From IMG/VR virus record IMGVR_UViG_2585427754_000004: DNA of 64,000 nucleotides, one strand, 5' to 3'. The number at the start of each line of letters is the position of its first letter. Within the stretch, counting starts at the first letter, position 1. The position numbers and the translations under genes were made by a program. Under the pieces are notes generated by a model, which saw only the letters and a program-made list of their open reading frames with translations, made no database searches and was not told where the DNA came from. Shown here piece after piece: positions 2,943 through 64,000 of this stretch. This DNA is from a virus (taxonomy: Duplodnaviria; Heunggongvirae; Uroviricota; Caudoviricetes).

Positions 2943-3464
2943 TTATTCGTCGAACAATTTTTCGATAGATTTTGTAGGATAGAACAAAGAACGCTCGTTG
3001 TTACCAACCAGCTGGATAAAGCCTAAACTTTTATAAAACGCCTTGGCTTTGTCATTTAACGCCTCAACGAAAAGTCCATGAATGCCTACAGCAAGAGATG
3101 CATTGTACACAACGCGCATTGCATGTGTTACAAGCATTGAGCCAAATCCTTGACCTTGAAGGGACTTGTCCAAAGCCAGCCTACCCAAAGTAACACTTGG
3201 AACATTCCGATAAGGAACCTTCTTTTGTTTGCTTCTTGAAGGTAAGGACTCCTTTTCAAAACAACTACCTGACAAAGTGTAATATCCTAACACTTTTGGC
3301 CTTTCTTCTTGAGTGCAAAGCACATAAGCACGAAGAATTTTTCCCTCATGCTGCCTTTTTAAGTGGTTGGCTAAAAAGGCGTTTAGTGACTCTTCGCCGC
3401 AATCAAAACCGTTTAGATCATAATCTTTCTCTCCAGAGAAAATCTCTATCGTTGTATTGCTCAC
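2943..3464 (-). CDS. GNAT-family acetyltransferase toxin (TacT/KacT-like) of a type II toxin-antitoxin pair
   Basis: 173 aa with acetyl-CoA-binding signature QGQGFGSMLV; 7 bp downstream of a DUF1778-type antitoxin gene on the same strand. Confidence 0.75.
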   Translation of the reverse strand: MSNTTIEIFSGEKDYDLNGFDCGEESLNAFLANHLKRQHEGKILRAYVLCTQEERPKVLGYYTLSGSCFEKESLPSRSKQKKVPYRNVPSVTLGRLALDKSLQGQGFGSMLVTHAMRVVYNASLAVGIHGLFVEALNDKAKAFYKSLGFIQLVGNNERSLFYPTKSIEKLFDE

Positions 3465-15371: not shown

Positions 15372-15553
15372 TTCCCACCAAACTCACTCCCATTTCCCTT
15401 AAAATTCAAAAAACAACGTCAAAATGATTCCATACCTACTATGTATGGAATCATTAGTAAAAATGAGTTACTTTTACTCTTGATCCTATAAGAATCTATG
15501 CCTAATATACTGTTTACTTATACAGTACATCGGCGTAACTCGGTGATTGTCAT

Positions 15554-16657
15554 ATGAAAAATAGCTTTGACAGAGCACGCGCTGCGGAGAACACCTCAAA
15601 AGAGGCGATTGAGTATCTCGAAAGAGCATCTCAAATGCAGGCCGTTATGATCTCCCAGGTTAGCAATGACATGAGATTCTCGGACGCATTCATGTTATTC
15701 ACTCGCTTATCTCTGCTGATAACCAGACGTCGGCCAGAGATCGCTGTTCATTGTATTTTGATACATGTTTTGCCGCACATTGCCGATGTAAAAGTAAGTG
15801 ATATTAATAGGTTCATGGTGAACCAACTGGTCAACCCACTAATACTGGATGGCAAAATTGTTATGGGCCGCCGCGTTTTCTCTCTGATGAAGCAGTTCCT
15901 TAGCTGGTGCGCCTTCCAGGGGATGATAGACGTGTCACCGTTAAACGATATGTCACTTAACAAAGTTGCCGGTGGCGCAAAGCCCACGCCCCGCGAGCGG
16001 AAGCTGACTGACGCAGAGGTATGGGTGTTCTGGAATATATGGGACTACTTCAATGTGTGCGCTGGTACAAAATGGGCGGCCAGACTGTGTCTTGTATCAG
16101 CAAGACGACCTGACGAAGTACTGCGGGCTAAAAAAAGTGAGTTCAATCTTAAGCGTGGGGTTTGGAATCAAGGCAAGAGGAACAAATCTGCCCGTGAGCA
16201 TTCTCTGCCTTTAAGCTCATTAATGCGCACTTGTATTGAAGAGTTGTTCGAATATGGTAAAGACAGCCAGTGGCTCGTGCCTTCGAATAAAAAAATCGGG
16301 AAAGACCTTCCTATGTCTAAAGTGGCAATAGCCCAGGCATTACGTCGTATTCTGGAACGACCAGAACTGATGGAGCTTGAGCCATTTACACCCCGAGATT
16401 TGCGCCGTACTGCGCGTAGTTACTTCCCAGCATTAGGCATAAGCCAGGAGGTATCACGTAAAATCATGAACCACAGTCTTGAGGGGATAGATCGGGTCTA
16501 CGACCGTCACGATTATATGGACGAGATGCGAGACGCCTTAGAAAGTTTCTCGACGTACATCGCATCAATCGTAGAGCAACCGGATTTAGACGAAATTGAC
16601 CACAAATTTAAGGGAGATCGTCTATCAACAGAGCTTATTCGTGTAAATTTTTCATAG
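15554..16657 (+). CDS. int: Tyrosine recombinase / integrase
   Basis: C-terminal catalytic-domain pattern with Arg (RRPDEV), His and RDLRRTARS, then HS ... VYDRHDY carrying the putative Tyr. N-terminal start uncertain. Confidence 0.7.
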   Translation: MKNSFDRARAAENTSKEAIEYLERASQMQAVMISQVSNDMRFSDAFMLFTRLSLLITRRRPEIAVHCILIHVLPHIADVKVSDINRFMVNQLVNPLILDGKIVMGRRVFSLMKQFLSWCAFQGMIDVSPLNDMSLNKVAGGAKPTPRERKLTDAEVWVFWNIWDYFNVCAGTKWAARLCLVSARRPDEVLRAKKSEFNLKRGVWNQGKRNKSAREHSLPLSSLMRTCIEELFEYGKDSQWLVPSNKKIGKDLPMSKVAIAQALRRILERPELMELEPFTPRDLRRTARSYFPALGISQEVSRKIMNHSLEGIDRVYDRHDYMDEMRDALESFSTYIASIVEQPDLDEIDHKFKGDRLSTELIRVNFS

Positions 16658-61112: not shown

Positions 61113-61735
61113 GCACGGTAGCGAAAGATCTCACAGAAGATATTCTCAATGAAATTATTGCTGGTGCAAATACCTCGCTTGAGCAACTTCTTGCGTTAGC
61201 ACTGAGAGCCGAACGTCGAGACAGAAATCGTTTTTATGAGCGATTACCAGGGAAGCGACCAGATAGATCGGATGAAGAAGGTTGCGATATAGACTACATG
61301 GAGCCTTCAGAGATTTATCAACTTGGTAAAGATGACGGCTGGAACGCTTATCACGATGCTGTGATGAAGTTGGATGAAAAAGTTAAACCTCTTTCTCGAC
61401 CGGTAGATCACGGTTTCCGCGATAACTGCGAATGCTCTAGTTGCCAGACCACGGCCCGTATTTGTTCCGAATTGACAGATAAGTCCAGCCTAATCTACGA
61501 AGTTAATGTAGGCGGTAATACATGGGTCGAATGCACAAGAGCTGCATACGTAAGAGCAAAAGACAAGGGTGAATTAACCAGAGTTGTTACCAATCACCCA
61601 AATAATGAGCTTAAAGATCACCAGATTCGAGAACTGGTGAACGAGTTGAGAGATATTGCGGTTCAGTACCACGGAACGCAGCAATTGCGGGAGAAGATTG
61701 CCAGAGCAGTGAACAACTCAGTCCGTAAAAAATAA
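61109..61735 (+). CDS. Hypothetical protein (last gene of the co-directional block)
   Basis: 208-aa ORF followed by a hairpin at 61753..61777. Confidence 0.3.
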   Translation: MSTVAKDLTEDILNEIIAGANTSLEQLLALALRAERRDRNRFYERLPGKRPDRSDEEGCDIDYMEPSEIYQLGKDDGWNAYHDAVMKLDEKVKPLSRPVDHGFRDNCECSSCQTTARICSELTDKSSLIYEVNVGGNTWVECTRAAYVRAKDKGELTRVVTNHPNNELKDHQIRELVNELRDIAVQYHGTQQLREKIARAVNNSVRKK

Positions 61736-61948
61736 GCAATAGTACGATAAAGAGGCCCCATGCTCTTGATGGGGCCTGTAGCAACTAGCGTTATGGACGC
61801 TGGTTTACGTACTCAATGATCGCTTTGATAATCGCGAACATCGGCGGCACGATTTTGAACAGTAAGTTAACCATAACAGGCCTCACTTAGTTTTATCGCG
61901 CCTAGCTGCAAATACCTTTGGGATTGCCTTTGCAGTTGCAATATCTGT

Positions 61949-61968
61949 AGTCGCCAGATACTTACGGC
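61949..61968 (+). repeat. 20-bp direct repeat, copy 1 (AGTCGCCAGATACTTACGGC)
   Basis: 19/20 identical to the copy at 62122..62141, 173 bp away, in the non-coding stretch between the mobile element and the umuD-like gene. Confidence 0.6.
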
Positions 61969-62121
61969 ACGATTTCGAGTTAAGGTAAGGTTTTAGAGTC
62001 ACCAAAAACCTGGACTTAAATCTTCTTTGAGAACAACGATGTTTAGTAAATGGTCATTATTACCTGGTATGACCACTCAACGTTTCTTGATGAATCCAGT
62101 ACATTCGGTTAATCTTAATTC

Positions 62122-62141
62122 AGTCGCCAGATACTTATGGC
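62122..62141 (+). repeat. 20-bp direct repeat, copy 2 (AGTCGCCAGATACTTATGGC)
   Basis: See copy 1. Confidence 0.6.
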
Positions 62142-62174
62142 TCAGGAACAGAGCCTCAAACTCTGTTTCCCTTT

Positions 62175-62205
62175 AAAAAGCCCAGCCTAGTCAACTGGGC
62201 TTTTT
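62175..62205. terminator. Bidirectional terminator hairpin
   Basis: AAAAAGCCCAG-cctagtcaa-CTGGGCTTTTT, preceded by a second hairpin at 62145..62170. Confidence 0.6.
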
Positions 62206-62500
62206 AATGTCTATTTTTAACCCAACATACCCTCAATACTGCAACATCAGTGTCTTGCGAATTAAGATAGTGTGAATAGATTTTTCATGCAAGTGCATAA
62301 GCCTGTGGATAACTCAGGAAGGAAAAAGTGACTTCTGCGCACTTTAGACCGGACAAGGCGTTCGAAAAAGTCAATGGGAAGAAAAAATTTGTTAAAAATA
62401 ACGTTTGTTTGAATTGTATATATTTATGCCTTTCAATAGTTAGCATCTTATTAACATCTTTTTTAAGAGATAGAGTTCAAAAATATATAGCTTCAATATA

Positions 62501-62520
62501 TACTGTATGTGTATACAGTA
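62501..62520 (+). promoter_or_regulatory. LexA (SOS) box
   Basis: TACTGTATGTGTATACAGTA fits CTGT-N8-ACAG and is nearly a perfect palindrome; 16 bp upstream of the umuD-like start, with AAGAGG ribosome-binding site between. Confidence 0.75.
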
Positions 62521-62536
62521 TTAAGAGGCGAGTATT

Positions 62537-62926
62537 ATGGGCTTCCCTTCTCCTGCGGCGGATTATGCTGAGAGCCGTATTTCTCTTGATCAGCAGATAA
62601 TTAGACATCCTTCAGCGACCTACTTCATGAGGGCAGCTGATAGTCATCATCGTGAGGGAATATTACAGGGTGCATTGCTGGTGGTCGATTCCTCACTTAC
62701 CCCGGTTGATGGTTCTCTGCTTGTATGCGCTCTGGATGGGGAATATCGCGTAAAAAGATACCGGAAGTACCCACGTCAGCATCTGGAGGATTTAAGAACC
62801 GGTAAGAAGGAAGCATTGCCAAAGGATGACGATGGATGCACGGGCAGCAATGCCGTGTTTGGTGTGATCACTCACATTATCAACGACGCAAGAAGTGGCG
62901 AGTTTGATGATTGTCCCGTGATGTAG
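62537..62926 (+). CDS. umuD: UmuD'-like protein (LexA/S24 peptidase fold) encoded without the N-terminal arm
   Basis: Starts MGFPSPAADY, i.e. at the Cys-Gly cleavage site of UmuD; retains the Ser (AADSH) and Lys (RVKR) dyad and GVITHII near the C-terminus. No umuC follows. Confidence 0.65.
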   Translation: MGFPSPAADYAESRISLDQQIIRHPSATYFMRAADSHHREGILQGALLVVDSSLTPVDGSLLVCALDGEYRVKRYRKYPRQHLEDLRTGKKEALPKDDDGCTGSNAVFGVITHIINDARSGEFDDCPVM

Positions 62927-62938
62927 GAGAACTGATTA

Positions 62939-62963
62939 GGCGGTGCAATGCACCGCCTTTTTA
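62939..62963. terminator. Bidirectional terminator between the umuD-like gene and apbC
   Basis: GGCGGTGCA-a-TGCACCGCC followed by TTTTTA. Confidence 0.65.
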
Positions 62964-64000
62964 TCACACTGCGCGGAATGCGATTTCGCCAGGTATTACT
63001 TCACCTTGCCAATACATTTGGGCGGCAACGCGATCTGCGAGGTCACGATAAATAGCCGTAAATTCGCTATCTGGACGACTAATAACGGTTGGTGTTCCGT
63101 TATCCAGATCTTCACGAAGAGAGATATGAAGTGGCATTTGGCCTAACAACTGCGTGTTGTATTTCTCGGCCAGTTTCTGTGCGCCACCGGTGCCAAAAAT
63201 TGGCTCGTGATGACCGCAGTTACTGCAAATATGCACACTCATGTTTTCGACGATACCCAGTACCGGCACTTCGACTTTTTCGAACATCACAATGCCTTTC
63301 TTCGCATCGATCAGCGCGATGTCTTGCGGCGTAGTTACCACAACCGCACCAGTTACAGGAATGTTCTGCGCCAGCGTCAACTGAATATCACCAGTGCCCG
63401 GCGGCATATCGAGAACGAGATAGTCCAGATCAGGCCATAGAGTTTCCTGCAACATCTGCATCAGCGCCTTGCTGGCCATCGGTCCACGCCACACCATTGC
63501 ATTGTCGTCGGTGACCAGATAACCAATAGAGTTGGTTGCCAGGCCATGAGACATGATAGGTGCCATGTGAGTACCGTCAGGTGAGGTTGGACGTTGGTTT
63601 TCCGCGCCCAGCATGGTTGGAATTGATGGACCATAGATATCGGCATCCAAAATACCAACTTTCGCACCTTCAGCAGCCAACGCCAGTGCCAGGTTTACCG
63701 CCGTGGAGGATTTACCCACGCCGCCCTTGCCTGAGCTGACGGCGATAATGTTCTTAACGCCATTAATGCCTGGTTGGTTTTTGACGCGCTTAAGCGTGGC
63801 AATGTTGTACGACAGCTTCCAGTCAATAGCCTTTGCGCCAGTGATACGGAGCAGATCACCACTACATTGCTCTTTCAGGTCTTCAAAAGGCTTATTCCAC
63901 ACGAAAGGCATGATTAGTTCGACATGCAGTGTGTCATCCATCAACGCAACATGGTGTAACGCTTTAAGCGTAGTCAGGTTGTGTTTCAGGGTTGGGTGCT
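62964..64000 (-). CDS. apbC: Fe-S cluster carrier ATPase ApbC/Mrp, 3' portion (5' end outside window)
   Basis: Near-identical to enterobacterial ApbC over the visible length: Walker A SSGKGGVGKSSTAVNLALALA, CSNCGHHEP and C-terminal WQGEVIPGEIAFRAV. ORF runs off the window end. Confidence 0.9.
   Translation of the reverse strand, partial: HPTLKHNLTTLKALHHVALMDDTLHVELIMPFVWNKPFEDLKEQCSGDLLRITGAKAIDWKLSYNIATLKRVKNQPGINGVKNIIAVSSGKGGVGKSSTAVNLALALAAEGAKVGILDADIYGPSIPTMLGAENQRPTSPDGTHMAPIMSHGLATNSIGYLVTDDNAMVWRGPMASKALMQMLQETLWPDLDYLVLDMPPGTGDIQLTLAQNIPVTGAVVVTTPQDIALIDAKKGIVMFEKVEVPVLGIVENMSVHICSNCGHHEPIFGTGGAQKLAEKYNTQLLGQMPLHISLREDLDNGTPTVISRPDSEFTAIYRDLADRVAAQMYWQGEVIPGEIAFRAV

Follow-up and report, generated by a model that had tools for sequence, protein, structure and literature searches.

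The HumD protein of phage P1, the prototype of its family, was reportedly characterised by McLenigan et al. in 1999 (J Bacteriol 181:7005) and is said to have needed a high-copy plasmid to complement well, its native expression being poor; its physiological role may be one other than bulk mutagenesis. MucAB, RumAB, ImpAB and SamAB are likewise LexA-controlled UmuD-family proteins borne on mobile elements, and they combine a full-length, cleavable subunit of the MucA/RumA type with a Y-family polymerase of their own. For two further relatives, gp26 of N15 and gp23 of phiKO2, we know of no experimental characterisation. The P1 GenBank note on humD reads "DNA repair; functionally complements E. 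coli UmuD'".

The gene humD has been termed a LexA-regulated SOS gene (PMC9603915), and the Ref paper (PMC4713147) gives qPCR primers for it but says nothing usable about whether the SOS response induces it. Strain LF82 harbours Cyrano as its phage-plasmid pLF82; this SSU5-like siphovirus forms virions, and ciprofloxacin induces it (PMC9928086). The window analysed here is a stretch of 64,000 nucleotides from a Caudoviricetes record (IMGVR_UViG_2585427754_000004), near the end of which an earlier reading of the letters alone (hereafter the sequence-only reading) had proposed an SOS-regulated UmuD'-like gene encoded in already-processed form.

Family assignment of the window protein

The open reading frame at 62537..62926 on the plus strand, here called humD, encodes a HumD-family UmuD'-like protein of 129 residues with an S24 peptidase fold, as assigned from a family profile and from matches to structures. 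On the NCBIfam equivalog model NF051876 ("HumD family translesion DNA polymerase") it scores 219.8 bits, the cut-off being 120, with residues 1-129 spanning profile positions 1-129 of 129, whereas on the UmuD model NF007621 it reaches 87 bits, under the cut-off of 110. Pfam PF00717 (Peptidase_S24) is matched with 37.9 bits against a cut-off of 23.3, PHROGs assigns the protein as "UmuD-like protein", and RefSeq names it either "HumD family translesion DNA polymerase" or "S24 family peptidase" on the matching plasmids.

Searched by tblastn against phage records, the protein is 100% identical to CYRAN_98 of Escherichia phage Cyrano, 91.5-92% identical to HumD of P1 and P7, about 91% to that of D6, and 68-71% to N15 gp26 and phiKO2 gp23; these last two share its pre-processed start and sit in a different phage backbone. 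P1 HumD (AAQ14073) is also 129 residues long, is 91.5% identical to the window protein and has the same MGFPSP start and C-terminal tail. The parallel with P1 HumD that the sequence-only reading had drawn is thus borne out by both the profile score and the identity, and we assign the frame as a HumD orthologue, a copy of P1 humD.

In a search of solved structures, the best matches were E. coli UmuD' and UmuD (E = 7e-23; PDB 1UMU, 1AY9, 1I4V and 8GMT), which have the S24 fold in common with the window protein and can be aligned with it from Gly25 to the end of UmuD, although at only about 38-40% identity. Plasmid matches annotated as umuD are likewise only 38-44% identical to it. A structure prediction (AlphaFold, with a family alignment of 23 sequences) gave a poor model, with a mean pLDDT of 54.5 and a pTM of 0.46; the assignment of the fold relies on the match to the solved UmuD' structures, which is sufficient without a predicted model.

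A start at the UmuD cleavage position

Translation of humD would begin 8 nt downstream of a Shine-Dalgarno-like AAGAGG (62523..62528, plus strand), and the N-terminus of the 129-codon frame is MGFPSPAADYAESRISLDQQ, opening with MGFPSPAADY. Direct reading of the sequence and the list of open reading frames place an in-frame TAA at 62522..62524 (plus strand), 12 nt before the ATG, with no ATG, GTG or TTG in between, so that an N-terminally longer product is impossible. One alternative that the sequence-only reading had set against its own proposal, an upstream in-frame start encoding the N-terminal arm, was examined and rejected on this ground, and an in-frame stop stands 9-15 nt 5' of humD in nearly all close relatives as well.

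When aligned with solved structures, Gly2 of the window protein falls opposite residue 1 of crystallised UmuD' (1umu_A) and opposite Gly25 of full-length UmuD (8gmt_B), which sets the beginning of the frame exactly at the UmuD cleavage site, where the sequence-only reading had placed it. The window protein has neither the 24-residue N-terminal arm of UmuD nor its Cys24-Gly25 cleavage site, and hence there is no activation step. As judged from this alignment, humD encodes the post-cleavage (UmuD') form. The same MGFPSP start is found in 109 of 120 cluster representatives of the HumD family. Other differences from UmuD are a C-terminal extension of 10 residues, the change of GDSM to ADSH and the location of the gene, which lies outside any umuC operon.

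A putative LexA operator

The near-perfect LexA box that had been noted 16 bp 5' of humD is well supported. The box, TACTGTATGTGTATACAGTA (62501..62520, plus strand), differs from the 20-nt palindromic LexA consensus at two positions, both of them in the central spacer, and sites with at most three mismatches number two in the window against 0.01 expected from shuffled sequences. We compared 80 viral loci whose humD is 91% identical or more, and in all 80 the CTGT and ACAG arms are invariant, whereas the spacer takes at least 10 different sequences. CTGT-N8-ACAG lies 18-21 bp 5' of the ATG in all of them (16-19 bp when counted for the 20-mer), and the regions 5' of humD in these loci are of several unrelated types. 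In P1, the annotated LexA site stands 19 bp before the ATG, compared with 16 bp in the window, and the spacers are ATAAATGA and ATGTGTAT, respectively. From the site and its conservation in relatives we infer that this putative LexA operator controls humD and that the gene belongs to the SOS regulon.

A sigma-70-like promoter, TTCAAA-17-TATACT (62476..62504, plus strand; 9 of 12 consensus matches), has its -10 hexamer over the left end of the LexA box. The scan of this AT-rich stretch found 2 sites against 2.1 expected, which is no excess over chance, and the proposal that this promoter drives humD is suggestive only. The placement of promoter and box resembles that at K-12 umuDC, where the LexA box stands at a similar spacing, 19 bp before the ATG, and humD keeps an operator arrangement of the umuDC type. 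In unstressed LF82, the Cyrano genes expressed above background include CYRAN_99, the apbC gene, at 9-fold above the prophage background, and do not include CYRAN_98, which is humD (PMC9928086); the absence of CYRAN_98 from this list is consistent with repression.

Upstream of the box, about 770 bp (62500 back to 61736, both strands) are without annotation in relatives. This region contains a plus-strand terminator (62184-62201) and a minus-strand frame of 53 codons (62285..62446), and a promoter-like site on the minus strand, running from 62524 to 62495, overlaps the LexA box of humD. These minus-strand features could be an echo of lxr, the divergent LexA-controlled gene of P1, or could be due to chance. 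An Rfam scan of 61700-63000 returned sub-threshold matches only, around the upstream terminator, and no RNA element.

The second LexA-like site of the window, TACTGTTTACTTATACAGTA (15508-15527, three mismatches), lies 26 bp 5' of a gene of the tyrosine recombinase/integrase family (15554..16657, plus strand; Pfam Phage_integrase) and is found at the same place in the related plasmid pMTY12368_pLF82. A promoter-like TTGATC-17-TAATAT adjoins it by eye, at 8 of 12 matches and under the threshold of the scan. This recombinase, on a plasmid prophage, may be SOS-controlled too.

A single-gene cassette on phage-plasmids

The DNA around humD matches E. coli plasmids of 72-115 kb at over 99%, and on the strength of these matches we assign the window to a phage-plasmid of E. 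coli of the pLF82/Cyrano type, which is SSU5-like. A chromosomal origin, as a prophage beside apbC, was considered and rejected: all full-length matches are plasmids or phages of 72-115 kb, and apbC, like metG beyond it, is borne by the element. This apbC (mrp) gene, at 62964..64000 on the minus strand, converges on humD and runs off the end of the window. In relatives a full-length metG adjoins it, and most E. coli genomes match the apbC stretch at only 80-90% identity, matches that presumably stem from chromosomal apbC.

Between humD and the convergent apbC, a terminator scan found an intrinsic terminator (62938..62963, plus strand), with a 9-bp stem containing 7 G-C pairs and a following run of T. 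The gene lies with Ead/Ea22-like moron genes in a region of variable cargo, and the locus reads as a single-gene SOS cassette in which humD is cargo of the phage-plasmid. The same unit, made up of the box, the gene and a terminator, is met again in P1, P7, D6, N15 and phiKO2. P1 is a different carrier from the SSU5/pLF82-like siphovirus phage-plasmid of the window, and DNA homology between the two extends only from the LexA box to the stop codon: the flanks are unrelated, with the divergent lxr and a downstream phd-doc in P1, and with neither of these in the window, where the terminator and convergent apbC stand instead. In N15, gene 26 is again a single gene, with the LexA box TACTGTATAAAAAAACAGTT 13 bp before the ATG and an annotated terminator, and its cassette adjoins plasmid-maintenance genes. 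LexA box and humD move together between temperate phage-plasmids that are otherwise unrelated (P1-like, N15-like and SSU5-like).

Five viral contigs (L007, L008, L011, L012 and L021) carry a humD coding sequence identical to that of the window, with apbC downstream, behind a different, P1-like leader, in which the box is TACTGTATGGATAAACAGTA and lies 18 bp from the ATG. An identical coding sequence behind a different leader indicates recombination joints at the start of the gene, with the LexA box retained. Related humD DNA is present in 765 of 5,426 complete E. coli genomes (about 14%), mostly on plasmids, and humD at 90% protein identity or more occurs in over 600 plasmid records.

A short gene that has neither an N-terminal arm nor umuC, and that lies in a variable cargo region among moron genes, might also be read as the functionless remnant of a umuDC operon, both ends of which were lost by recombination. 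The dN/dS ratio of window to P1 humD, 0.042/0.80 or about 0.05, rules out a decaying remnant: the gene is under strong purifying selection. The remnant reading is likewise at odds with the precise, identical start in the 109 of 120 representatives, with a Shine-Dalgarno sequence, LexA box and terminator belonging to humD itself, and with the retention of the cassette in the unrelated backbones of P1, N15, phiKO2 and pLF82-like elements. It is effectively refuted by selection and conservation, and we attach almost no probability to it.

A proposed cofactor for the host polymerase

As had been read from the window alone, no umuC-like gene follows humD; what follows is the terminator and the convergent apbC. 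A tblastn search of the window with E. coli UmuC gave no match (best E = 0.26), no umuC lies within 3 kb of humD in any of the 80 viral loci, and no Y-family polymerase is found among the 126 annotated features of pMTY12368_pLF82, a complete relative of 106 kb. That a Y-family polymerase might be encoded farther away on the element was considered and dropped, as there is none in the window or in this complete relative. P1, like the window element, has no umuC partner for its humD. The host, in turn, carries umuC in 5,423 of 5,426 complete E. coli genomes, so that the presumed partner of HumD is essentially always available.

We consider it very likely that humD is an SOS cassette supplying a pre-cleaved UmuD' cofactor for host UmuC. 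In an undamaged lysogen, host LexA would repress the gene by occupying the box, which overlaps the humD promoter at its -10 region and start. On DNA damage, activated RecA would promote self-cleavage of LexA, and humD would be transcribed along with host umuDC. Removal of Met1 would leave HumD with the N-terminus that UmuD' newly acquires, making RecA-mediated cleavage unnecessary, and a HumD dimer would then take the place of UmuD'2 on host UmuC to form a Pol V-like translesion polymerase. Error-prone bypass of lesions could in this way begin earlier than the slow conversion of UmuD to UmuD' permits, from which the damaged replicon, whether of the phage-plasmid or of the host, would benefit.

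LexA binding at the box, the complex of HumD with UmuC and the benefit to the phage are steps that we infer from the 91.5% identity to P1 HumD, the complementation note in the P1 record and the title of the paper by McLenigan et al. (1999). By the same analogy, the window protein would replace UmuD' functionally and bind UmuC and RecA filaments, as is recorded for P1 HumD only. The phage-plasmid has a DnaE replicase of its own, which counts against the cofactor model; pMTY12368_pLF82 encodes DnaE together with a primase, a helicase and a ligase.

The catalytic dyad and a HumD-specific tail

The Ser/Lys dyad that the sequence-only reading had pointed out is indeed kept: Ser36 and Lys73 of the window protein align with Ser60 and Lys97 of UmuD. 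UmuD' is reported to cleave UmuD intermolecularly, and with both residues in place, and the lysine conserved in 98% of 105 HumD cluster representatives of 120-135 residues, HumD might act as an active S24 protease in trans, on host UmuD, on LexA or on a phage repressor. Among the same representatives, however, only 57% have Ser at the position of the nucleophile, against 41% with Thr and 2% with Ala, and across the family GDSM has degenerated (the Gly position holds Gly, Ala or Ser, Asp is variable and Met becomes His), as expected where there is no selection on catalysis. Because the serine varies in this way, the dyad of the window protein is weak evidence for protease activity, and a role as a protease in trans seems very improbable to us. 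The proteolytic activity of HumD is probably vestigial; the apparent lack of family-wide constraint on the nucleophile fits a protein that would never need to cleave itself.

The C-terminal decapeptide x-G-E-F-D-D-C-P-V-M (GEFDDCPVM) is nearly invariant in the HumD family and has no counterpart in UmuD, which hints at an interaction beyond simple mimicry of UmuD'. With its catalytic serine relaxed (Thr or Ala in 43% of representatives) and this tail gained, HumD could conceivably be a non-proteolytic adaptor with a partner specific to it, be it the alpha subunit of Pol III, the clamp or the DnaE replicase of the phage-plasmid, a proposal that we put forward tentatively and regard as unlikely. 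If it were true, HumD expressed in time with the SOS response would govern the switching of polymerases or the restart of replication on the phage replicon, instead of just adding to mutagenesis by host Pol V.

The same near-invariant tail, in suggesting a partner beyond UmuC, also agrees with the view that HumD mainly modulates activated RecA and the SOS response, by competing for the groove of the RecA filament or by damping recombination or repressor cleavage, so as to time prophage induction. The UmuD'2C complex inhibits RecA-mediated recombination. HumD retains the S24 core, the part docking on RecA filaments, and is homologous to UmuD' and to the C-terminal domain of LexA; the gene would be co-induced with the SOS response through its predicted LexA box, and genotoxic stress induces the elements on which it resides. 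Against this view, the P1 record gives functional complementation of UmuD', and the residues in common with UmuD' span the whole core and not the RecA-facing surface alone, and we judge it distinctly unlikely that modulation of RecA is the main function. This modulating role, activity as a protease in trans and the operon remnant are all less likely than a pre-cleaved cofactor for host UmuC.

Other possible UmuD'-like lineages

Our comparisons also brought up several related arrangements outside the window. In 23 mostly enterobacterial genome loci, a conserved 79-aa frame (MPRR.DIE..F...NPNGG) stands directly 5' of a humD-like gene, at about 2760-2996 in each locus (L088, L090, L093, L097, L098, L110-L117, L120, L124-L129, L152, L160, L163 and L164). 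The frame matches phrog_3893 (unknown function) and no Pfam family, and the window lacks it; the humD-like gene appears to be translationally coupled to it. Elsewhere, in loci of Citrobacter, Kluyvera, Klebsiella and Pseudocitrobacter (L089, L091, L092, L094, L095, L108 and L109), a tandem pair of adjacent LexA-like boxes stands 5' of either the humD-like gene or the partner frame that precedes it, upstream of position 3001 or of the start of the match.

Three loci, L128, L130 (a Proteobacteria MAG) and L131 (a Chitinophagaceae MAG), contain UmuD'-sized genes of 115-117 codons that begin with MGFPSPA and have a umuC homologue immediately downstream, a biased sample given that the search pattern demanded M before GFPSPA; the gene of L131 is preceded, 12 nt before its start, by an in-frame stop. 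Possibly these are pre-processed forms of UmuD' that have kept their cognate polymerase. Finally, plasmids of about 34-60 kb from several Enterobacteriaceae (H52-H58) carry S24 genes, annotated solely as "S24 family peptidase", whose products are 48% identical to the window protein over its residues 1 to 115 and which may represent another stand-alone UmuD'-like lineage, on small plasmids.

Discussion

As a discovery, the gene is of little weight: humD is already known, with a named family, a curated model and RefSeq annotation, and with a P1 prototype whose characterisation reportedly dates from 1999. What is mildly new is the Ser/Thr variability at the position of the nucleophile, the near-invariant tail and the exchange of the cassette between phage-plasmid lineages. 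The value of the check lies in placing the window on a phage-plasmid, in documenting the transfer of the cassette and in finding that the reasoning from raw sequence was sound. Beyond this locus, the prevalence of humD in E. coli bears on mobile elements that may raise stress-induced mutagenesis in their hosts, for example under quinolones.
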